The notes under the pieces are model-generated. The model was not told where the DNA came from. It was given only the letters and a program-made list of their open reading frames with translations, and made no database searches. A stretch of 64,000 nucleotides of DNA from an uncultured Pseudomonadota bacterium (GTDB lineage Bacteria > Pseudomonadota > Alphaproteobacteria > Rs-D84), in the NCBI GenBank assembly GCA_949292385.1, contig CASEZC010000010.1:7432-71431 (forward strand), in the 5' to 3' direction. Shown in pieces: positions 16,396 to 28,657 of this stretch. How positions within the stretch are numbered: position 1 is the stretch's first letter; the number at the start of each line of letters is the position of its first letter. A program made the position numbers and the translations under genes.

Positions 16396-17031
16396 ATGGA
16401 AAAACAAGAAATAAGAACATTTGGTCGCCGACACGGCAAAAAGATATCTGCACGCCAACAATGGCTGATTGATAATATTTTACCCAAAATATCCCCGTTA
16501 AACGAATCGGATAACACGGTAAAAATACTTGAAATAGGCTTTGGCAGTGGCGAGCATTTAAGAGAACTTGCAAATCAAAACCCAGAAAAAATTATAGTTG
16601 GTGCAGAGCCTTTTATGAATGGCGTCGCGTCTTTATTGTCTGCAATTACAAACATAACAACCAACGAAGTTCTATCAGAATATAAAAACATCAGGATTTT
16701 TGCAGACGACGTTCGTGACTTATTACGTAACACCGATTCGAAATTCGAACAAATTTGGGTTCTTCACCCTGACCCATGGCCAAAGGCAAAGCACGAAAAA
16801 CGTAGACTTTTAAATGCAGAATTTTTAAAACTTTTATCTAACCACTTGACCAATTCGGGCGAGATAATAATCGGCACAGACCATTGGGAATATTTTGATT
16901 GGATTCAACAAGAGCTGCAAAAGACGAACTTAAAATTTAGCACGCCAGACATTGCGACTATTCATACCAGATACCAAGAAAAGAACAAAGCTGGAACAAT
17001 CGCGCCAAAGTATTTAGTTATAAAAAATTAA
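16396..17031 (+). CDS. trmB: tRNA (guanine46-N7)-methyltransferase TrmB. Start taken at the internal MEKQEI.
   Basis: SAM-binding LEIGFGSGEHL and TrmB core. The upstream 42 codons of the tracked ORF are low-complexity read-through. Confidence 0.85.
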   Translation: MEKQEIRTFGRRHGKKISARQQWLIDNILPKISPLNESDNTVKILEIGFGSGEHLRELANQNPEKIIVGAEPFMNGVASLLSAITNITTNEVLSEYKNIRIFADDVRDLLRNTDSKFEQIWVLHPDPWPKAKHEKRRLLNAEFLKLLSNHLTNSGEIIIGTDHWEYFDWIQQELQKTNLKFSTPDIATIHTRYQEKNKAGTIAPKYLVIKN

Positions 17032-17702
17032 ACATTCACAAAAAATTTTATTTTATCTAATAACTTTGGCCGCATAGTTTCGACCAATCTATACGCCTGT
17101 TCTATTCTTAAAAAATTTCTTCCAAAAGCAAAATGCAAATCACAATCAAGCTCAGGATTCCATGCATCAAGCGCCGCATATAGTCTTCCTATAAAATCAG
17201 ATTTATCACCCTTGTCTACTGGTAAAGCCAGCAACAAACCAGACGCACGAATTTTACGCAAAGCATCAAAAACATTTTTCCAATCGAATGCGTCCACATC
17301 TGAAATATCTAAGCCAATATACAAACTTTTATTAAAAAACAAATCATCTCTAATAATATATAACTTAGAAACAAAATTACTTAAATCAGATAACCTGATA
17401 AAAATTTGTACCCCATCAGCACCCTGTTTAAAAACATAATTTATATTTGATGTTAATTCAGATATTACATCATCAGATTTTGACTTTTCGCTTAAATAAA
17501 ACCTAGAAAATATATCTACACATTTACCTTCCAGCCAAGGCCATAATACAGAAACAGCCGACGAAACGACAGACACCGCATCAAAATGTTCTGTTACAGC
17601 TTGATTTGCAACATAAGCCAAATCAGTTGAATCCGATTCGGCATTACACCACAATGCCAGCTTATAAGAGTTTTCATCAAGAATATTATCCACGTTTATC
17701 AT
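17028..17702 (-). CDS. Hypothetical protein with divergent DeoC/LacD-aldolase-like (TIM-barrel) features
   Basis: 224 aa. Segments can be aligned by eye to deoxyribose-phosphate aldolase (HFDAVSVVSSAVSV...GKCVDIFSRF ~ FASVCVNP...GVDVCTVIGF; GADGVQIFIRLSDL ~ GATEVDMVINIAAL), but the FVKTSTGF Schiff-base lysine motif is not conserved. Confidence 0.3.
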   Translation of the reverse strand: MINVDNILDENSYKLALWCNAESDSTDLAYVANQAVTEHFDAVSVVSSAVSVLWPWLEGKCVDIFSRFYLSEKSKSDDVISELTSNINYVFKQGADGVQIFIRLSDLSNFVSKLYIIRDDLFFNKSLYIGLDISDVDAFDWKNVFDALRKIRASGLLLALPVDKGDKSDFIGRLYAALDAWNPELDCDLHFAFGRNFLRIEQAYRLVETMRPKLLDKIKFFVNV

Positions 17703-17745
17703 AACTCTTTTTACTTTATCATAAATATGATATAATCAAAGACAA

Positions 17746-18672
17746 ATGAAAATAAGAATTGATAACATATTACTTGGAACCTTATGGTTACTAGCTGTAA
17801 CGCTGGGGGCAAGCTTTTGGTTTAACACAATATTTGGTTTTAATATATTATCCGTAAAACACTGGGAATACGTTTCTTATTTGCAGGCAGCAAAAACACC
17901 TATAAATTCTATGTTTTATGTATCTTTTGTAATAACGGTATTTGTTGCAATCCTAGGCTTATACGTTCTTATACGTCCAAGATTAAGAAAAATTAGACTA
18001 CCAATAGTACGAATATCAAACAATAAACCTGTTCAAACATCACAACCAGAAAAAAACACACAAACAGACGCATCTACACTGGATGTAACTAAAAGCGCTG
18101 AAATACAAAAAACAGTCCCAACCGCCCCAAGTGTTCCACAGCATATAACAGTCAGACCACCTAGGTTAAATTTACCGATAGCAAGCAATATGTCGACACC
18201 TGTAATCAACAAACAACCGACAAACAACACTTTTAACAACCAACCAAAACCAGTAGCCAAGGAATATCCAGAAATACAAGAAATATTTGCATCTGCTGGC
18301 TATACAGTAAAAAAGAACCCTATAATAAACGGCATAAAAACCGCATTACTGGCAATTGGTTCTGACGAAGTGCTCTGGATTGGGGCCGTTGGAATAAAAA
18401 CGACAGAATTAAGAGCAATGATAGATAAACTATCACAAGTATTTTCTGACACGTTGGATGATATATACATAAATATAAATGGTTTTGTTCTTTTTGCACC
18501 AGATGAAGCAACGGCAGAATTTCAAAACATATTAATGTTTAATTCTATAACGCAGTTAAAAGAATACATGGAAACGCGAAAGAATCCAACGCTGCCAGAA
18601 GAAGAGAAAGATAATTTTGATGCATATTCAGAATATATTGATACAGTAATAAACTATATAGGTAAAATTTGA
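17746..18672 (+). CDS. Membrane protein of unknown function: two N-terminal TM helices, Pro/Gln/Thr-rich linker, about 130-aa C-terminal globular domain
   Basis: 308 aa; TM1 LLGTLWLLAVTLGASFWF, TM2 FYVSFVITVFVAILGLYVLI. The C-terminal domain (GYTVKKNPIINGIKTALLAIGSDEVLWIGAVGIKT...) loosely resembles a NERD/YraN restriction-endonuclease-like core. First gene of a four-gene operon. Confidence 0.5.
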   Translation: MKIRIDNILLGTLWLLAVTLGASFWFNTIFGFNILSVKHWEYVSYLQAAKTPINSMFYVSFVITVFVAILGLYVLIRPRLRKIRLPIVRISNNKPVQTSQPEKNTQTDASTLDVTKSAEIQKTVPTAPSVPQHITVRPPRLNLPIASNMSTPVINKQPTNNTFNNQPKPVAKEYPEIQEIFASAGYTVKKNPIINGIKTALLAIGSDEVLWIGAVGIKTTELRAMIDKLSQVFSDTLDDIYININGFVLFAPDEATAEFQNILMFNSITQLKEYMETRKNPTLPEEEKDNFDAYSEYIDTVINYIGKI

Positions 18673-19178
18673 TGCAATTAACAAAAGAAGCAGCTGAGCA
18701 AAAATTATCTGAATTAAAAATGGACGATTTGCCATTAATAAACATAACGCCCCAAAAAGCCAGCTTGTCTTCTGATTGGTTTATAAAATATAAAAAAGCA
18801 TGTCATGAATTCGCCTTATCTTTAACAGATTCAATAGAAGAACTTGCTTTTATGAATTTGTCTCAAGACGACTTTATGAATTTAATTATGGGCAAAAAGA
18901 TACCTACAAACTTGTCAATAAGATTTAGAATACCTTTACTTTATGGTGGCGAAATAAGTCCAGATAATATGTTTATGTGTTGGACATTTCCTAATTCTTA
19001 CAGATTAGACAAATTTATTGCGGACCAAGCAGGCAGTCAAACAATATGGTTACCTAACCCTACAAAAAAGATATATATTTCTGCACACACAGCATCTGGC
19101 GGGGATGGTGGTAACGCAACGTCTGACAGACTGTCCCAGCTGGCCGCACAACTTTCACAAAATCGTGGCATGGAATAA
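18669..19178 (+). CDS. Hypothetical protein (169 aa), no signal peptide
   Basis: ATGA start/stop overlap with the upstream gene. No family recognised by eye; C-terminal Gly/Ser-rich segment (HTASGGDGGNATS). Confidence 0.45.
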   Translation: MMQLTKEAAEQKLSELKMDDLPLINITPQKASLSSDWFIKYKKACHEFALSLTDSIEELAFMNLSQDDFMNLIMGKKIPTNLSIRFRIPLLYGGEISPDNMFMCWTFPNSYRLDKFIADQAGSQTIWLPNPTKKIYISAHTASGGDGGNATSDRLSQLAAQLSQNRGME

Positions 19179-19189
19179 GAGAAACAAAA

Positions 19190-19618
19190 ATGACCCAAGA
19201 AGAATTCTTACTTGAAATGAAAAAAAACGGTGCAACTTTTGCCCCTGCTTCATCTGGTCAATCAATAAATTTAGCAAACACCAAATTGCAACAAAATCAA
19301 TCTGCAATGCTGCCTGAATTTATGATAAATTTATATCAAAAAACAGGCGGAATAAATCTTGGTAACGGTTATATATTTGGTCCAAGCGAATTTTCTGTAG
19401 ACGGTAAATTCCCTGTTCCAGATTTATTAAAAGTAAACAAAGATTTTAATAAAAACATGCGTGGAAAAACGATATTCGGTCGCAACGATTTATTCTTTTT
19501 TGCGTTTGATTGCTTTGGCACATGTTTTATGCTGAACAATCTGACATTAAACCCATTAAAAAAGTATGATGATTGTTACAGAGCATTAACAGATTGTTTA
19601 ATTGCAGGAAAAAACTAA
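19190..19618 (+). CDS. SUKH-1 / SMI1-KNR4-like protein (immunity-protein-type fold)
   Basis: INLANTKLQQNQSAMLPEFMINLYQKTGG matches the SMI1/KNR4 consensus (I.e.e.kLg..LPedykefl.kyNGG); distal aromatic/Asp motif (RNDLFFFAFDCFGTCFMLN). Confidence 0.5.
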   Translation: MTQEEFLLEMKKNGATFAPASSGQSINLANTKLQQNQSAMLPEFMINLYQKTGGINLGNGYIFGPSEFSVDGKFPVPDLLKVNKDFNKNMRGKTIFGRNDLFFFAFDCFGTCFMLNNLTLNPLKKYDDCYRALTDCLIAGKN

Positions 19619-19620
19619 AC

Positions 19621-19839
19621 ATGAAAAAACTATCAGTATCTTTATCTGGCCATCAAACAAGTATATCATTAGAAAAAGAATTCATAGATTGCCTGCATGA
19701 ACTTGCGAACGAAAAGAAATGTTCTGTTGCATCAATAATATCAGAAATAGATTCTGCACGTAACCCAGACACAAATTTATCATCTGCAATACGTATATGG
19801 ATTTTAAAAGAAATACAAAATAAAAAAACCGCTATATAG
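19621..19839 (+). CDS. Small ribbon-helix-helix DNA-binding protein (alphaproteobacterial RHH_4-like family)
   Basis: MKKLSVSLSGHQTSISLEKEFIDCLHELANEKKCSVASIISEIDSARNPDTNLSSAIRIWILKEI matches the conserved S.SLSGH.TSISLE..F...L...A...G.S...LI..ID..R...NLSSA.R pattern. AGGA Shine-Dalgarno upstream; last gene of the operon. Confidence 0.6.
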   Translation: MKKLSVSLSGHQTSISLEKEFIDCLHELANEKKCSVASIISEIDSARNPDTNLSSAIRIWILKEIQNKKTAI

Positions 19840-19845
19840 CGGTTT
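19828..19845. terminator. Bidirectional rho-independent terminator (palindrome AACCGCTATATAGCGGTT)
   Basis: Perfect 18-nt palindrome flanked by an A-run (19822-19827) and TTTT (19846-19849). Lies between the RHH gene (+) stop and the ybeY-lnt (-) stop. Confidence 0.8.
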
Positions 19846-19852
19846 TCTGGTA

Positions 19853-21862
19853 TTATTTTAACTTATTAAACTTTCCCAAAGGCACACATAAAAATATAGA
19901 AAACAATAAAATTATAATCATCCACCCATCACGTCCGATAGTCCTATATACAGTATTATGCGCCCCCCAGACAAATCCATCCAAACAACCAGCCTGTCCA
20001 ACAGATAAGTAAGATATAATTTCCCCGTCAGACGAAATAAAAGCACTTATACCTGAATAATTGGCCCGCACAATCGGCATACCTGATTCTATTGCATATC
20101 TGCGAACCATATCAAGATGCTGATAAGTTCCAGGTGTATTACCAAACCAAGTATCATTAGTTATATTTATAATCATATCTGGGTTCCGCTGACTTGGAAT
20201 CAAGGAATCAGAAAAAATAATTTCATAACAAATGGCCGGTGCAAAAGCGAACGAACCTGTATTTAAATTTAAGCTCATAAGTTCCGCCCCTGCCCCCTTA
20301 GACAGTTGCCCAGGTGTCGGGATAATATCACCTAACGGTCTGTATTCGCCAAAAGGTACTAAATGCGATTTACTGTAAATCTTATTTATTTTTCCTGAAT
20401 CATCAGCAATAACCATAGAGTTAAACATCTTACCAGCAGAATAATATTGCGCCCCTATTATAACAGGTTTATTCAGGTATTCCGCAATCGGCATACTATC
20501 GCCATCTAAAACAACAAAAGGATATGATGTTTCTGGAAATACCAACAAATCAAAATCACCTGGTGCAGATGCAAGTTCAACCAAGTTTCTTATATTAATT
20601 TCAGCATTTCTCAAAGCCTCTTGTCTTGAATGAGTAGCTTTCTGTACGGCGCTTTCTGCCGGCTGCACGATACGAATAACATAATTATTATCTGATTGTA
20701 AATGCGCAGCTTGGATATTTTTATAACCAACAAACGCACCCAAAGCAAATAAGAAACAGAAGATAAAGAACACCGCCCAAGAAAGTTTTGACTTATAATT
20801 AGTCAGCAATTCTACGACGGCCGCCACTAATCCTATTGTTATAAAAGAAAGCCCCAATGCCCCCCACAACGACATAGAATTTGCAATTACTGGAAACGGC
20901 ATAAAAATATTAGCCACAGGGTTCCAAGGGAATCCCGTCAAAAACCATTCTCTCAACCACAAAACAAACGTCCAAAACGAAGCAAATAAAATCGGTCTAC
21001 ATGGCGGAAACGTGCACATACGTGAAATTAACACAAAAGGAATTGCGAATATAACCCCACCTAAAATTCCTATACCAAACAGTGCTGGAACAGTCCATAT
21101 TGCAAACTCAGCTGCAAGTTCTGGAACCACATATATAGAGTTTAAGACCCACCAAAACATCGCCATTGAATACGCAACACTAAAAGGCAAAATTCTTAAA
21201 AAAGATTTTATCCAACTTACCTTATTAGCACGCACAACAAATTTATAAGCAGCAGCAACAGCTATTAATGTTGCCCACCACATATTAAAAGGCGCAAATC
21301 CCAAAGAAGCTACAGCACCTAAAGCGAACAAAATAATATTTTGAAAAAGTCCATCTTCTTTTATTTTTATCTTTTTAAAAAATGATAAAAACTTACTTCC
21401 AGGACAACAAGAAGAATCGCTGCATATAGGCAAATCCGGCATATATGGATTTTTTATACCAAGTTTTTTTAATATTTTTATTTCTGTTTTTTCCATTACT
21501 TCTGCTTCGTCATCTTTTATATGATCATAACCTAATAGATGTAATATCCCATGAACAACCATATGTGCAGTATGTTCTTCAACAGAAATATTTAAATCTT
21601 TTGCTTCACGTTTTACTGTATCCAAAGAAATAAAAATATCACCCAACAAAATATCATCTTGCAATTCAAACGATAATACATTCGTAGCTTTATCAATACT
21701 ACGATAATCTTTATTCAGCTTATGAATTTCTTTATCATCAATTAACGTTATAGAAACTTCAGAGTTTTTATAATTCCTACCAACAACTGCATTTGCAATT
21801 TTTTCAAAATCAATTTTATACTTCTTCCAACGAGAATCTTGATAATTAATATAAACTTTCAT
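19853..21862 (-). CDS. ybeY-lnt: In-frame fusion (or same-frame overlap) of endoribonuclease YbeY (N-terminal, about 140 aa) with apolipoprotein N-acyltransferase Lnt (C-terminal, about 528 aa)
   Basis: Residues 1-140 carry the YbeY H..HG.LHL.GYDH motif (HMVVHGILHLLGYDH). From Met141 (coords 21442-21440, MPDLPI...) onward it is a multi-TM Lnt with a CN-hydrolase domain (E...K...C catalytic region, AICYEIIF). No stop codon separates the two parts. Confidence 0.75.
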   Translation of the reverse strand: MKVYINYQDSRWKKYKIDFEKIANAVVGRNYKNSEVSITLIDDKEIHKLNKDYRSIDKATNVLSFELQDDILLGDIFISLDTVKREAKDLNISVEEHTAHMVVHGILHLLGYDHIKDDEAEVMEKTEIKILKKLGIKNPYMPDLPICSDSSCCPGSKFLSFFKKIKIKEDGLFQNIILFALGAVASLGFAPFNMWWATLIAVAAAYKFVVRANKVSWIKSFLRILPFSVAYSMAMFWWVLNSIYVVPELAAEFAIWTVPALFGIGILGGVIFAIPFVLISRMCTFPPCRPILFASFWTFVLWLREWFLTGFPWNPVANIFMPFPVIANSMSLWGALGLSFITIGLVAAVVELLTNYKSKLSWAVFFIFCFLFALGAFVGYKNIQAAHLQSDNNYVIRIVQPAESAVQKATHSRQEALRNAEINIRNLVELASAPGDFDLLVFPETSYPFVVLDGDSMPIAEYLNKPVIIGAQYYSAGKMFNSMVIADDSGKINKIYSKSHLVPFGEYRPLGDIIPTPGQLSKGAGAELMSLNLNTGSFAFAPAICYEIIFSDSLIPSQRNPDMIINITNDTWFGNTPGTYQHLDMVRRYAIESGMPIVRANYSGISAFISSDGEIISYLSVGQAGCLDGFVWGAHNTVYRTIGRDGWMIIILLFSIFLCVPLGKFNKLK

Positions 21863-21873
21863 TTTTTATTTTC

Positions 21874-23784
21874 CTATATATCTTTAACGTTGTTCTTTAA
21901 CAAATTAACGATATCTTTTTCATTAGATTTTTTATTAACAATTTCCATTGCATCACTAAAAGACAAAGTTTTAGATTTCATTTTTTCTTTAAGTCTTTCT
22001 ACATCTTTTTTTACATTAAGATTTCCATTTGCAACAGACAATTCATAATTCTTTAAAGCCTTTTCCAAATCTCCGATTTGTTCGTATGCAAAACCAGCAT
22101 TATACTGAGCAGCCGCATACTGGCTTTTATCGCCAATTCTATGAAGAATTTCTTTAGCTTGATTTATAGCCTCTTGATACATACCAAGTTTATTATAAGT
22201 TGCAGCCAAGTCATTATATAATAACGCATTGTCTTTATGAACAGATATAAGTTCTTTATACTTGATTTCTGCCTTTTTATAATCTCCACTTTTATAACAA
22301 TTTAAAGCCTCTTCATATGCATCGGCATATTCTAGGGTGTAAGTACTTTTTTCTATTTTTTCTTGTTTTTTTGTTTGTCTGACTAAAGCTTTACCACTAA
22401 ACTCGCATTCCCCCATTTCACAATATGCCAAAACATCGGCTGGCAAATAATCTTTAACACATTTCCAATGTTTTATAGGACGACCATTCTTATCAATAGG
22501 ATTATTCAGCCACATTTTAAATTTTGCATAAGTATCCTTGTTAACTTTTCTATCACCGGATTTTCCAGTAAAGAAAGCTTCTTCTTTCTGTCCCATATAG
22601 CAAAAGAATTCATACATTCCATTTACCGGACAATTTAATAACATATCTGGTGTTATATCACCAGACAGCACTCCTGCCTCTAGCCAACGGCGCCAATATA
22701 GCCCCTTGCCACCGGCCAAGAAACCACCCAACTTATCCGACACGTCTGATTTTTTATCATACCCGAGCCACACCTTACCAAAACTAGTTGGCTTAACTAT
22801 CGGATATTTTTGAAACAACTTTATTACTAAATCATCAGGTACTGCATATCCATATTCTTTGTATATCCTTCTTAATTCAGTGAAACGATTCTTGACGTTT
22901 TTATCTTGTTTATTTTCTATCAATTTAGAATATGAATTATATATAATAGACCCCATTCCCAGGGCTTCTTTAGTATCATTCACATCTACATAATCACTTG
23001 CAACATCATAACAATATAAAACGAAATAAGTTTCACCCTCCTCTAAATGCCAACGTGCCAACTCATAGGCTTCTTCCGTAGTGATAGGTTTTGTTTTCAT
23101 AGTTACCCTTGAACCATCTTTTAGCATGGTAGAGCCAAAACCTATTGTAGGAATCCCCTTTGAATCAAGATAAGGTACATGCAGCCCAGTTTCAGGGTCC
23201 ACTTTAACGCCCTCTTTTGCAATTAAATCAGCAATAAGATAAGGTGTTATAGGACGCATTTTTTTCAAGAATTCCGCATATGTACCCTTTATTCGTTTAT
23301 TTTCTTCTCTGTCTTTTCGCCACTCTTTATAAGCATCTACTGCCAAAGGCCCTTTTTCAACGGCTGCCTTTCCTCCAAACCCTAAAACCCCTAACAGCAT
23401 ATACCACGATACATACGCAGATAAATTAGGATTACTTTTAGAAAAGCGTCTTAAAGTCTGAGATTGAAATTTTTTCTTTTCGTTTAAATTTATTTTCTTA
23501 TTTTTTTCTTCAAGCTTTCTTAAAAAGACATTATCCAAAGCCAACCATCTGGCCATAGTTAGTAAAAACTGCGCACCGCCAGCAGTCAACCAAGCTGCCC
23601 CTTTTGCAGTTTCCAAACCTACCAACATTGCTGAATCTTTATAAGCAGCATATTTTTCGTCATCGCCCTTTTTCTGTCGTCTTTTTTTTACAAAATCTCG
23701 CGGGCTTTGCTTTTCTATAAGTTTACGTAATTTTTCTGCAAGTTGTTCAGGTTTAGCAACAGCCTTTCTAAAAGAATCTTTCAT
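21874..23784 (-). CDS. Membrane-anchored GH24 (T4-lysozyme-like) muramidase with a C-terminal TPR-repeat region
   Basis: 636 aa. Charged N-terminal segment of about 110 aa, one TM (YVSWYMLLGVLGFGG), then PETGLHVPYLDSKGIPTIGFGST, which aligns residue-for-residue with the T4 lysozyme E11-x8-D20-x5-T26 catalytic region ([21 protein letters not shown]). Cys-containing middle region; at least 3 TPR repeats near the C-terminus (YNKLGMYQEAINQAKEIL, AQYNAGFAYEQIGDLEKALKNYELS). AAGGA Shine-Dalgarno 8 nt upstream. Confidence 0.6.
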   Translation of the reverse strand: MKDSFRKAVAKPEQLAEKLRKLIEKQSPRDFVKKRRQKKGDDEKYAAYKDSAMLVGLETAKGAAWLTAGGAQFLLTMARWLALDNVFLRKLEEKNKKINLNEKKKFQSQTLRRFSKSNPNLSAYVSWYMLLGVLGFGGKAAVEKGPLAVDAYKEWRKDREENKRIKGTYAEFLKKMRPITPYLIADLIAKEGVKVDPETGLHVPYLDSKGIPTIGFGSTMLKDGSRVTMKTKPITTEEAYELARWHLEEGETYFVLYCYDVASDYVDVNDTKEALGMGSIIYNSYSKLIENKQDKNVKNRFTELRRIYKEYGYAVPDDLVIKLFQKYPIVKPTSFGKVWLGYDKKSDVSDKLGGFLAGGKGLYWRRWLEAGVLSGDITPDMLLNCPVNGMYEFFCYMGQKEEAFFTGKSGDRKVNKDTYAKFKMWLNNPIDKNGRPIKHWKCVKDYLPADVLAYCEMGECEFSGKALVRQTKKQEKIEKSTYTLEYADAYEEALNCYKSGDYKKAEIKYKELISVHKDNALLYNDLAATYNKLGMYQEAINQAKEILHRIGDKSQYAAAQYNAGFAYEQIGDLEKALKNYELSVANGNLNVKKDVERLKEKMKSKTLSFSDAMEIVNKKSNEKDIVNLLKNNVKDI

Positions 23785-26567: not shown

Positions 26568-27281
26568 TTAGAACAAAATGTTTACTTTTGCACCAATTTG
26601 GAAATTATCACTTTCGAACTCATAGTCAAGATGACCGATATATTGAGTACGTCCGTATTGACGAATTACCTTTCCACCCAACCATTCTTGGTTATATTTT
26701 GGATTTGTGGCTTTACGTATCATAAAAGAAGTCCCCAGACGCCAATCTTGACTGACACGGAAATAAGCCTCTGGTTCAAAATCTATATAAGCCATTCCAC
26801 GAACGTCATCAAAAATCCAGCTAGATTTTATTGTTGCCGCCAACGTAAGCCCTGCCCACTGACGACCAAACCTATAACCAGCATAATAAGTAGAATCTGC
26901 AAAATAAGGTGTTCTTACATGAGAACTGCCACCAAACTTTAAACCGAACAAAACATCTGAAATGATTCTTGCACTGTTACCATCAGCTGTACTTACACGA
27001 TAAACACCGCCCAAATCTATACTAGAAAAACCATCTTCCGTACCATCAAAATCTTGCTGAAAATGAACGTTTGCAGCAATGGTTAATCTGTTATTTAATC
27101 CATAAGACACTGTCTGTCCAAGGCGCAAAATACTATCCCAATAAGTAAGAGATGTTTCTGATAAAAAATCTTCAAATCCTAACATATACAAAGGATCCGA
27201 AGTATCCCTATCTAAGACGTTAGCAAGCGCCCCATTGCAAAAAAAACAAGAAATTAAAAATACAGAAAAAAATTTGCGCAT
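26568..27281 (-). CDS. Outer-membrane beta-barrel protein, smaller paralog (signal peptide, C-terminal Phe)
   Basis: Start taken at MRKFFSVFLISCFFCNGALA (signal peptide); alternating amphipathic beta-strand pattern; ends ...GAKVNILF (aromatic C-terminus typical of BAM substrates). Confidence 0.6.
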   Translation of the reverse strand: MRKFFSVFLISCFFCNGALANVLDRDTSDPLYMLGFEDFLSETSLTYWDSILRLGQTVSYGLNNRLTIAANVHFQQDFDGTEDGFSSIDLGGVYRVSTADGNSARIISDVLFGLKFGGSSHVRTPYFADSTYYAGYRFGRQWAGLTLAATIKSSWIFDDVRGMAYIDFEPEAYFRVSQDWRLGTSFMIRKATNPKYNQEWLGGKVIRQYGRTQYIGHLDYEFESDNFQIGAKVNILF

Positions 27282-27317
27282 AATCCCTCTCCAACAAACC
27301 AAAGCACTAAAACATAT

Positions 27318-27343
27318 TAGAACTCTTGCCAACAAGAGTTCTA
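27318..27343. other. Perfect 11-bp-stem hairpin between the two tandem OMP genes
   Basis: TAGAACTCTTG-ccaa-CAAGAGTTCTA. No strong U-run on the OMP-sense strand, so it may be a partial terminator or attenuator between paralogs. Confidence 0.5.
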
Positions 27344-27357
27344 ATATTCGTATTCAA

Positions 27358-28554
27358 TTAAAACAAGAACGTTGCTTGCAATCCAACAGAAGTTTCAGAG
27401 TAATTATCTAAATCTGCTGTACCCATTTTAACAAAGTTTCCTGTATCAATATCCGTTCCCCAGAAAGTCAAATTCTTTCCGTCTGCAGAATCATAAACAG
27501 CTGTTTTTGCATACAAGTTCAAAGCAACCCAATCATTTGGCTGCCAACCAATTGCAGCTTTCAAACTCGCTTGGTTATGCCAATCATAGTTACCTATTAC
27601 GCCTTCGAAATTCAGCGTCCAATCTTCATCTAATACGCTGAATATACCAAGACCGCCTTCTACATAAAATACGCTGCTTACATCCGTATTATATGCCAAG
27701 AATATTGTTGACTTTGCACCATCTTCTGTAACGCCTTCTATACCATTACCATAAGAATTTCCATCAAAATCAACATACCAACCACGGGCTAATCCATATA
27801 TTGTAGAAGAACCTACTTTATAACCGCCCTTTAAATCCAACAAAATATTGTTAGAAATATCTTTCTGATACTGATAGTAACCAGACAAAGTAGCAATCCA
27901 CTTGTCGTTATCTACGAAGCGCCACTGAGCACCAACACCGAACAAGTTCAAACCGTTATCGTCCATAGTATCATCTGGTGCAGTTGACCAATCAAATTCA
28001 TAACTTGAAATATCATATTTCAACATTGCCAAAACTGCGATACGGTCTGTAATACCATAACTGAAGTCTTCTTTGATAGAAAACTGGTCCATATTCCATT
28101 TTCCGTTTACATCTGAAACAGTACCTGTCGGCAACAGTTTAATATCATAAGAATTCATTGTATAAGACAAATCTGTAACAGAGCCAAACTTACCTTTCAA
28201 AGGTTGGAAGAAAGGATGCGCCAAGAAATACTTACGCTTTAATTCACTGCTGTATGTTTCAGCGCGTGTTGTACGAACAGTTGTAGAATTATTACCCGCA
28301 TATTGCTTATACAACTGACTGCGGTTAGCAGGCTGAGTGTAATACAAATTTTTTGCATCTTTTTCATCATATGTTTTCGTAGAAGTACGAGTTTCATATT
28401 TCTGATAATTAACCTGCGTACGTTCACGAACAGCAGGCTGTCCAGTTAAGTCAACGCTTGATGCGGCACGAGTGCCAGAATTTGTTGCAGCAAACGCAGG
28501 CAACACACCGAACAAAGCAAGTCCACACATAAACAAAGAAACTTTATTTTTCAT
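27358..28554 (-). CDS. Outer-membrane beta-barrel protein, larger paralog
   Basis: Start taken at MKNKVSLFMCGLALFGVLPAFA (signal peptide); ends ...VGLQATFLF; beta-strand periodicity throughout. Confidence 0.6.
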   Translation of the reverse strand: MKNKVSLFMCGLALFGVLPAFAATNSGTRAASSVDLTGQPAVRERTQVNYQKYETRTSTKTYDEKDAKNLYYTQPANRSQLYKQYAGNNSTTVRTTRAETYSSELKRKYFLAHPFFQPLKGKFGSVTDLSYTMNSYDIKLLPTGTVSDVNGKWNMDQFSIKEDFSYGITDRIAVLAMLKYDISSYEFDWSTAPDDTMDDNGLNLFGVGAQWRFVDNDKWIATLSGYYQYQKDISNNILLDLKGGYKVGSSTIYGLARGWYVDFDGNSYGNGIEGVTEDGAKSTIFLAYNTDVSSVFYVEGGLGIFSVLDEDWTLNFEGVIGNYDWHNQASLKAAIGWQPNDWVALNLYAKTAVYDSADGKNLTFWGTDIDTGNFVKMGTADLDNYSETSVGLQATFLF

Positions 28555-28657
28555 ATTAAATTCTCCTTTGACGAGAATTATACCACAAAAAGCACCCATA
28601 AAAAAGGAATTAATAAAAAAATCCCTATAAAACCAATATATAGGGATTTTTACTTAT

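Follow-up and report, generated by a model that had tools for sequence, protein, structure and literature searches.

A SUKH-fold gene and its degenerate HNH partner in a conserved core operon of Rs-D84 Alphaproteobacteria

The stretch of DNA considered here, referred to throughout as the window, comprises 64,000 nucleotides of contig CASEZC010000010.1 (assembly GCA_949292385.1, positions 7,432 to 71,431) from an uncultured alphaproteobacterium of the Rs-D84 lineage. Its subject is a small gene, g142 (19190-19618, forward strand), whose 142-aa product has a predicted SUKH fold and is placed, through intermediate relatives, in the lineage of YrhA. It shares an operon with genes for a membrane protein (g308), a 168-aa protein (g169) and a ribbon-helix-helix protein of the RHH_4 family. 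Comparisons support the descent of g169 from an HNH DNase toxin domain, making g169 and g142 a former toxin-immunity pair in which the catalytic residues have been lost.

Organization and conservation of the operon

The four genes occur in the order g308, g169, g142 and RHH_4. Across 80 loci, one per species genome, taken from 226 genomes matched, the last three genes adjoin one another in every case (80/80), and g308 comes first in 79. Their records bear the names Candidatus Enterousia or uncultured Alphaproteobacteria, and a complete chromosome of 716 kb is among them. The genes are tightly packed: the stop codon of g308 overlaps the start of g169 as TGATG in 61 of 74 loci, the median gap between g169 and g142 is 14 nt (11 nt in the window), and that between g142 and the RHH_4 gene is 2 nt. 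The same neighbours recur from locus to locus, namely gltX, trmB, a ybeY-lnt fusion, a MucR-like gene and rarA. Identity to the window copies is 53-70% for g169 and 52-70% for g142, values comparable to the 59-80% of trmB and the 53-70% of ybeY-lnt.

The last gene of the operon (19621-19839, forward strand) encodes a 72-aa ribbon-helix-helix protein (RHH_4, PF13467; Pfam E 2.9e-22) that is present in 80/80 loci and is also found directly after the pair in two distant loci, L085 and L092. It is presumed to be a DNA-binding regulator of the operon. A GC-rich hairpin flanked by A/T runs (ACCGCTATATAGCGGT, 19823-19848) lies between the convergent RHH_4 and ybeY-lnt genes; the terminator scan called it on the reverse strand, the palindrome has a T-run on the forward strand as well, and, judged by its sequence, it probably terminates transcription in both directions and marks the end of the operon. 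A promoter scan returned sites no more numerous than in shuffled sequence, and none in the intergenic interval 17703-17745.

Genomes of Rs-D84 are smaller than 1 Mb, and members of the order are believed to rely on partner cells (PMC12306168). The remainder of the window carries housekeeping genes, including tatC, lolA, recJ, a penicillin-binding protein gene, thrS, ftsK, secDF, mutL, recA, glycosyltransferase genes and others, and no secretion-system genes were found in it. Scans with the profiles of g142 and g169 detected no relatives on viral contigs, the g169 of the window matched no plasmid, and PADLOC, applied to the operon proteins and their relatives, reported no defence system, its sole hit being a weak mad8 match to a coupling ATPase described below. 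None of the variable cassettes, orphan modules or patchy distribution expected of polymorphic toxin loci was seen; a single pair occurs, in the same order, in 80/80 genomes. The features of a type II toxin-antitoxin module were likewise lacking, with no match to a toxin-antitoxin or defence family and with fixed chromosomal synteny, although an RHH_4 gene is present. The pair is a non-polymorphic core operon with strictly vertical inheritance.

The SUKH-fold protein g142

The initial annotation described an open reading frame at 19190-19618 with two SUKH-like motifs, and this reading frame proved to be real: it runs from ATG 19190 to TAA 19618, and both motifs fall in its best-conserved columns. 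The first motif, LPEFMINLYQKTGG, occupies residues 41-54 (19310-19351), and the distal aromatic/Asp motif, FFFAFDCFG, occupies residues 102-110 (19493-19519). Both hallmarks of SUKH proteins, the N-terminal LP..h..hh...GG and the C-terminal aromatic-x-D-x-x-G, are thus present in g142 and are invariant or nearly so across the family. In an alignment of 33 homologues with 54-85% identity, P42, G53/G54, F102, F104, D107, F109 and G110 stand out in this way. In all, 363 homologues were recovered at E<=1e-3. No precomputed Pfam domain is attached to any of them, and the few bearing a name belong to uncultured Alphaproteobacteria or to metagenome-assembled genomes labelled 'Rickettsiales'. A genome scan matched g142 in 226 species-representative genomes. 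Identity at first, second and third codon positions is 0.73, 0.82 and 0.52, and this pattern (second above first, and both far above third) indicates purifying selection. Given the homologues, the genomes and the purifying selection, g142 is no chance reading frame.

The assignment of the protein to the SUKH (SMI1/KNR4) group held at the level of fold and fell short at the level of curated profile scores. The AlphaFold2 model of g142 is of high quality, with a predicted local distance difference test score (pLDDT) of 90.6 and a predicted template-modelling score (pTM) of 0.84. When it was compared with the PDB by Foldseek, ranks 1-4 were taken by 3d5p, 2icg, 2pag and the Knr4 core, with probabilities of 0.96-1.00 and template-modelling scores of 0.5-0.73. 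The first three are structures of the SMI1/KNR4 family. Because the model resembles solved SMI1/KNR4 structures, the SUKH call holds by fold, and the modelling confirms a predicted SUKH alpha/beta architecture. The Pfam model SMI1_KNR4 (PF09346) gave g142 15 bits (E 0.038) against a gathering cut-off of 25.4, and weakly matched 7 of the 33 homologues (best E 3.3e-4). The NCBIfam model of the YrhA family (NF038335) gave 24.1 bits against a cut-off of 55, in an alignment (E 2.8e-5) that covers 9-133 of the 142 residues, or nearly the full length.

Placement in the YrhA lineage comes by way of intermediate relatives. The g142 family aligned with the partner proteins of distant loci at an hhalign probability of 97.5% (E 6e-12), and these partners in turn aligned with E. 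coli YrhA at 96.8% (E 2.9e-10). Two of them, from L097 and L095, pass the NF038335 cut-off of 55 bits with 66.8 and 68.5 bits. With the alignments of g142, g169 and the C-terminal domain of g308 as profiles, searches of the PDB sequences returned nothing meaningful.

An HNH ancestry for the upstream partner

The two genes preceding g142 had been noted as a membrane protein and a 169-aa protein of no recognized kind. Both are present as described, except that the true start of the second is ATG 18672, which overlaps the g308 stop as TGATG in the window and gives a protein of 168 aa (18672-19178, forward strand). It had further been guessed that this gene might be the cognate partner of the SUKH gene, and the guess was correct, in that g169 adjoins g142 at 80/80 loci and is homologous to a toxin domain, the HNH DNase domain of YhhZ type. 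It can be described as a degenerate HNH, or His-Me finger, protein.

This ancestry was not apparent from family models. Neither Pfam nor NCBIfam assigned g169 to a family, and the Pfam HNH model itself gave no hit; a weak Tdi1_C match in 2 of 33 homologues was dismissed as likely noise. The AlphaFold2 model (pLDDT 84.9) contains a beta-beta-alpha core made of strands at 81-85 and 100-104 and a helix at 105-117. Foldseek matches to it were individually weak (E 0.5-10) and were mostly to HNH domains, among them Cas8-HNH, ZRANB3, Gme and the Rhs2-CT toxin. A profile search of 1.84 billion representatives recovered 77 relatives, including proteins of 180-433 aa that carry the domain at their C terminus. 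With the window-clade profile alone, the comparison with YhhZ was no more than suggestive (hhalign E 0.049), so that the broader family alignment was needed to establish the homology: it matched the last 161 residues of YhhZ at 98.7% over 129 columns (E 2.8e-16). The window clade is itself joined to the distant subfamilies of g169 at 98.8% (E 5e-17).

Mobile DNA supplies a second line of comparison. One distant member of the g169 family matched 458 enterobacterial plasmids, mostly conjugative, in genes annotated as 'HNH endonuclease' (tblastn E 1e-14 to 3e-16), and in both of the two regions inspected a 'YrhA family protein' gene lies 10 nt downstream. The window-clade profile aligned with the plasmid HNH endonuclease at 82% (E 1e-5), placing R84-F85 opposite its HH dyad. 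The arrangement also recurs in E. coli K-12, where the end of yhhZ, which encodes an Hcp-fused 'putative endonuclease', overlaps with yrhA. The g142 gene thus has the context of a YrhA-family gene, being placed immediately downstream of a gene for a YhhZ-type HNH domain. Since both halves match, g169 and g142 are homologous, as a pair, to the HNH-DNase/YrhA pair; and since g169 descends from the HNH DNase toxin domain that precedes YrhA-family genes, the two together are a former toxin-immunity pair. The derivation of g169 from the HNH (His-Me finger) DNase toxin domain of YhhZ and the plasmid endonucleases is supported by these alignments.

Loss of the active site and of charge polarity

The HNH-like core of g169 (18903-19028, forward strand) reads P78-x-N80...R84-F85-R86-x-P88...G92G93...N99...P107...F115...Q119, with R84 and F85 at the positions of the HH dyad of YhhZ. 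Residues were tallied in 251 family members aligned to YhhZ, 163 of the window type and 88 others. At the position of the general-base histidine, the second of the dyad, no histidine occurs in any of the 251 members; the residue is F, L or M (with one W) in the window type and L, V, I, F or M in the others. The first histidine of the dyad is replaced by arginine in 157/163 window-type proteins and is kept in 64/88 of the others, and the histidine of the PYH motif is serine in 142/163 and histidine in 60/88, respectively. The central asparagine is kept in both groups. Thus the window clade has neither the catalytic general base nor the metal-ligand histidine, and retains the central asparagine alone.

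Charge tells a similar story. The net charges of the toxin C-terminal domain of YhhZ and of YrhA are +7.8 and -12.5, and those of the HNH and SUKH sides in the distant relatives are +1.8 and -6.4. In the window clade the g169 and g142 families stand at -4.1 and +0.7. The polarity expected of a DNase and its inhibitor fades in the window clade. Moreover, searches with Pfam and NCBIfam found no delivery or trafficking domain (Hcp, Rhs, LXG, CdiA and the like) in the 168 residues of g169.

These observations bear directly on whether g169 could still be a toxin that g142 neutralizes, as had been proposed. This is probably wrong, considering that the catalytic histidine is absent from 251/251 members, that no trafficking domain is present and that the pair sits in a non-polymorphic core operon. 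A form of the idea that does not need HNH chemistry can be framed as a live addiction module, in which g169 would be toxic by a non-canonical route, g142 would neutralize it, the RHH_4 protein would regulate the operon as in type II toxin-antitoxin systems, and the pair would persist in reduced genomes because its loss kills the cell. Ancestry from a DNase/immunity pair, the position of the immunity gene directly downstream of the toxin-derived gene, and a tight operon ending in a ribbon-helix-helix gene would all suit such a module. We nevertheless hold it to be improbable: beyond the missing general base, the window clade has also lost the other histidines and its positive charge; synteny is fixed among housekeeping genes in 80/80 genomes and extends to L085 and L092, whereas mobility and patchy occurrence are usual for toxin-antitoxin and polymorphic toxin loci; the operon includes a membrane protein that is conserved with the pair and coupled to it in translation; and neither PADLOC, the viral contigs nor, for the g169 of the window, the plasmids offered any match.

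The same data speak to g142 on its own. SUKH proteins are reportedly typical immunity proteins that are often found without a complete toxin (Zhang, Iyer and Aravind 2011, cited in PMC5714182), and it is conceivable that g142 is an orphan immunity gene that protects against HNH toxins injected by competitors, with neighbours that are functionally unrelated. However, g142 never occurs without g169, whether in the 80/80 loci or in any distant locus for which sequence is available, it is present as a single copy and not in an array, and it has lost the acidity that is typical of immunity proteins against nucleases, so that this explanation appears very unlikely.

The membrane protein and its relatives beside a coupling ATPase

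The first gene of the operon, g308 (17746-18672, forward strand), encodes a membrane protein with two N-terminal transmembrane helices, at about residues 8-26 and 51-80 in a hydropathy scan. These are followed by a linker rich in proline, glutamine and threonine, which carries a conserved RPPRLN motif, and by a cytoplasmic C-terminal domain, about 150 aa long and acidic (18223-18669; median isoelectric point 4.3). Pfam and NCBIfam assigned no family to the protein of the window. Two distant orthologues gave weak NERD matches (E 0.016 and 0.007); the C-terminal domain is accordingly called weakly NERD-like, lacks the catalytic triad, and its NERD assignment is a weak one.

The related pairs outside the 80 loci place this protein in a wider setting. 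In five profile-annotated distant loci (L082, L086, L091, L095 and L097), the gene immediately preceding the HNH-like gene encodes a VirD4/TraG-type coupling ATPase; this protein matches PF02534, PF10412 and PF12696 as well as NCBIfam models of VirD4/TraG, and both of its Walker motifs, A and B, are intact. A tblastn search added about 25 further metagenome loci with the ATPase, which was seen in essentially every metagenome locus having upstream sequence. Wherever that sequence sufficed, a homologue of g308 stood directly upstream of the ATPase. A single NCBI label, 'Alphaproteobacteria bacterium', is the basis for the taxonomy of these relatives with the ATPase. Upstream of the ATPase there are one or two paralogous proteins, each some 350 aa long, which share with g308 an N-terminal transmembrane hairpin and a weakly NERD-matching C-terminal domain. 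They are 34% identical (E 1e-13 to 1e-15) to the L092 protein encoded upstream of the pair, and g308 itself is homologous to a 357-aa member (23% identity and E 6e-7 by tblastn; blastp E 9e-7). That g308 might be a truncated coupling protein was considered and rejected, since its homologue is a separate gene upstream of the ATPase; no similarity was found between its C-terminal domain and the ATPase.

Not all relatives have the ATPase. A form without it and with RHH_4 occurs outside Enterousia in L085 (GC 56%, with the same ybeY-lnt neighbour) and in L092, and in L087 the pair stands alone. Searches by tblastn with the ATPases, and profile scans of the window, found no coupling ATPase in the 80 Rs-D84 loci, of 12 kb each, or in the window. 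From the loci compared, the conserved set therefore consists of a membrane protein, an HNH-like protein and a YrhA-like protein, with the ATPase either between the first two or absent.

The initial annotation had also offered g308 as a candidate toxin, and one may imagine it as, for instance, a pore-former with g142 as its immunity protein, its co-conservation being in keeping with this. The comparisons do not bear the suggestion out, and we regard it as scarcely credible: g308 has a two-helix anchor and an acidic, weakly NERD-like cytoplasmic domain, the ATPase and the HNH-like gene separate its homologue from the SUKH gene in the relatives, and the SUKH lineage concerned, that of YrhA, pairs elsewhere with HNH domains. 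It is instead a co-conserved third component, present at 79/80 loci and with its homologue upstream of the ATPase.

The proximity of the ATPase raises a further alternative, namely that the HNH-like protein is an effector of a type IV secretion system (T4SS), recognized by the adjacent VirD4-type coupling protein through a Gly-rich, positively charged C-terminal tail, with the YrhA-like protein as chaperone or immunity protein; the Rs-D84 copy would then be a remnant or would use a T4SS encoded elsewhere. The ATPase lies directly upstream in many relatives, a VirB6/TrbL-like gene is near it in L097, the conserved C-terminal sequence GSGGKxKHDRSVYAGF...GR ends in basic residues, the AlphaFold2 model of g169 has a flexible tail (pLDDT <50 at residues 142-147), and the relatives retain their basic/acidic polarity. 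Against these points, the window holds no T4SS gene, its g169 is acidic and, at 168 aa, carries no extension, g169 evolves like the housekeeping genes where variation would be expected of an effector, and the catalytic histidine is missing even where the ATPase is adjacent. On balance an effector role seems unlikely, about on a par with the addiction module discussed above.

Several features of the ATPase-linked loci may be recorded in their own right. Their HNH-like proteins (L097 10001-11077; P0280, P0286, P0300, P0302, P0318 and others) have a conserved MWDWS start, and long P/Q/Y-rich repeats (PQPYAPQPYAPQ, in many copies) precede the conserved domain. Upstream of the ATPase in L097 (3107-7541) lie four open reading frames of 342-367 aa without Pfam hits, with a similar arrangement in L110-L114; two of the four are paralogous two-helix NERD-like proteins, and one is extremely rich in K, P and E. 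Also in L097 (297-2939), an 880-aa protein with a weak TrbL/VirB6 match is encoded on the other strand, near dnaA-dnaN-recF-gyrB. In L082 (6017-6301), a 94-aa protein follows the pair in the place of RHH_4; its sequence shows a lipoprotein-like signal (…LSAC…) along with four cysteines, and no similarity was found between it and RHH_4.

A proposed role at the membrane for the disarmed pair

Within Rs-D84 the pair is both disarmed and fixed: it has lost the general-base histidine, the other histidines and the basic charge, and no secretion module accompanies it. Because the catalytic residues are lost and the pair is fixed as a core operon, it is probably no longer a weapon. The explanation that we favour, and which commands about half of our confidence, is that g169 and g142 are an exapted, non-catalytic toxin-immunity heterodimer that works at the membrane. 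The two proteins would still form the tight heterodimer inherited from their toxin-immunity ancestry, the recognition between nuclease and inhibitor being kept while the chemistry was discarded. The dimer would serve as a structural or adaptor unit at the cytoplasmic face of the inner membrane, made in fixed stoichiometry with g308 and docking onto it, and the RHH_4 protein would autoregulate the operon. As the three proteins are encoded around a VirD4/TraG-type ATPase in related Alphaproteobacteria, they probably serve that ATPase as accessory subunits or partners.

A more far-reaching version of this proposal is only tentative, and we give it distinctly less credence. It holds that the two-helix NERD-like protein, the dead HNH protein and the YrhA-like SUKH protein make up an undescribed, vertically inherited accessory module of a VirD4/TraG-type ATPase in Alphaproteobacteria, exapted as a non-catalytic adaptor, which in Rs-D84 has become indispensable without the ATPase gene and has acquired RHH_4. 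The role of the trio may lie in cell-to-cell or envelope-associated transport.

Some of the evidence weighs against an exapted, non-catalytic dimer. The relatives adjoining the ATPase keep three of the four histidines together with their basic/acidic polarity, and binding of metal or DNA, or secretion as effectors, is conceivable for them. Canonical HNH chemistry is disfavoured by the hydrophobic residue in place of the general base, but g169 may conceivably be toxic by another route. The 64-kb window contains no coupling ATPase or T4SS gene, and the link to the ATPase may be irrelevant to this organism. On the side of g142, the protein scores under every curated family threshold, and its family did not align significantly by hhalign with single YrhA sequences, whether from E. 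coli (E 0.15) or from a plasmid (E 0.12). For this reason the intermediates are needed, and the connection to YrhA is, as far as alignments indicate, a transitive one. Finally, the structure models cover monomers only, and binding between g169 and g142, docking of the dimer to g308 or the ATPase, the regulatory role of RHH_4 and the cellular process that the pair would serve are what we infer.

Neighbouring genes and public labels

The gene convergent with the operon (19853-21862, reverse strand) is a 669-aa reading frame that fuses YbeY, an rRNA maturation endoribonuclease (PF02130), to the apolipoprotein N-acyltransferase Lnt (LNT_N and CN_hydrolase). The two are normally separate neighbours and the fusion is unusual; it is kept across the Rs-D84 loci and in the distant L085 (7088-8878). 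Between it and the MucR-like gene lies a 636-aa protein gene (21874-23784, reverse strand) with weak TPR matches only. This protein was matched in 43/80 loci, often at 25-35% identity, and, unlike its neighbours, varies among related genomes or is missing from many of them.

On the other side of the operon, a divergent gene (17028-17702, reverse strand) encodes a 224-aa protein for which family searches gave no hit but a negligible deoC match. It adjoins g308 in 72/80 loci, is 27% identical to its counterpart in the distant L085, and may share a divergent promoter region with the operon. Farther along, beside ftsK, a gene at 27358-28599 (reverse strand) and an adjacent reading frame of 237/255 aa (26568-27335) are conserved and belong to no Pfam family.

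Public records for L039 (OZ246409.1), L078 (CAZJGX010000010.1) and P0025/P0236 are labelled 'uncultured Muribaculaceae bacterium' or 'Lachnospiraceae bacterium OttesenSCG-928-E19'. Their synteny with the Enterousia loci suggests that these labels are wrong.

Comparison with known systems and significance

The nearest described counterpart is the YhhZ-YrhA pair of E. coli (b3442-b3443), which has the same two-gene order and close spacing, with an HNH-type protein upstream and a SUKH-like protein of the YrhA lineage downstream. YhhZ forms group 32 of the His-Me finger classification (PMC5714182), and Hcp-ET1 is an HNH DNase with a cognate immunity protein, of the Hcp-ET1/ETi1 class of the type VI secretion system (PMC6099711); the combination of Hcp and HNH domains suggests that YhhZ belongs to that class. 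The window pair differs in having no Hcp or other delivery domain, in the change of the HH dyad to R-F and of the last histidine to serine, in its lost charge polarity, and in its place in a core operon with membrane and ribbon-helix-helix proteins instead of in an island. Plasmid pairs of HNH endonuclease and YrhA, such as those of the IncHI2A plasmid p2481359-1 and of a Kosakonia plasmid, are likewise comparable. Their HNH proteins share 33-35% of residues with the HNH-like domain found in the ATPase-linked relatives, aligning across some 80% of that domain (best E 3e-16). The plasmid proteins, however, keep VHHKIPLDDGG...PYH and reside on mobile DNA, while the window genes have no plasmid or viral relatives.

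With the SUKH (SMI1/KNR4) immunity proteins of polymorphic toxin systems, g142 shares its predicted fold, its hallmark motifs and its place downstream of a nuclease-type domain; unlike them, it falls below the Pfam gathering score, is not polymorphic, forms no arrays and is strictly vertical. Dead His-Me fingers have been reused elsewhere as binding modules, in the MH1 domain of Smad and the nuclease-like domain of ENPP (PMC5714182), and g169 similarly keeps the scaffold after the loss of the catalytic histidine. Those proteins are eukaryotic and are not paired with an immunity-type protein, and MH1 still binds DNA whereas g169 is acidic. A purely functional analogy may be drawn with small cytoplasmic proteins tied to a membrane translocase or coupling ATPase. 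The coupling ATPase DotL of Legionella has the adaptor or accessory subunits DotM, DotN, IcmS/IcmW and LvgA, and the SecY-binding protein Syd belongs to the SUKH superfamily. No match to these proteins was seen in sequence or fold, and they differ further in that the window has no coupling ATPase.

HNH/YrhA pairs, SUKH immunity proteins and dead His-Me fingers are each already known. In the literature searched, there was no inactivated HNH/SUKH pair inherited as a reduced-genome core operon with a NERD-like membrane protein and, in relatives, a VirD4-type ATPase. For annotation, the case is a warning that a SUKH fold alone is insufficient for an 'immunity' label.

Toxin-immunity pairs are usually seen as fast-evolving and dispensable weapons, and here one has been retained throughout a lineage with genomes below 1 Mb despite the loss of its chemistry. 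If the exapted, non-catalytic dimer is real, the operon would be a clean bacterial case of core cell machinery gained by domesticating a conflict system. It would further indicate that VirD4-like ATPases have unrecognized partners, and would provide a function for three 'hypothetical' genes that are universal in abundant, uncultured gut Alphaproteobacteria.

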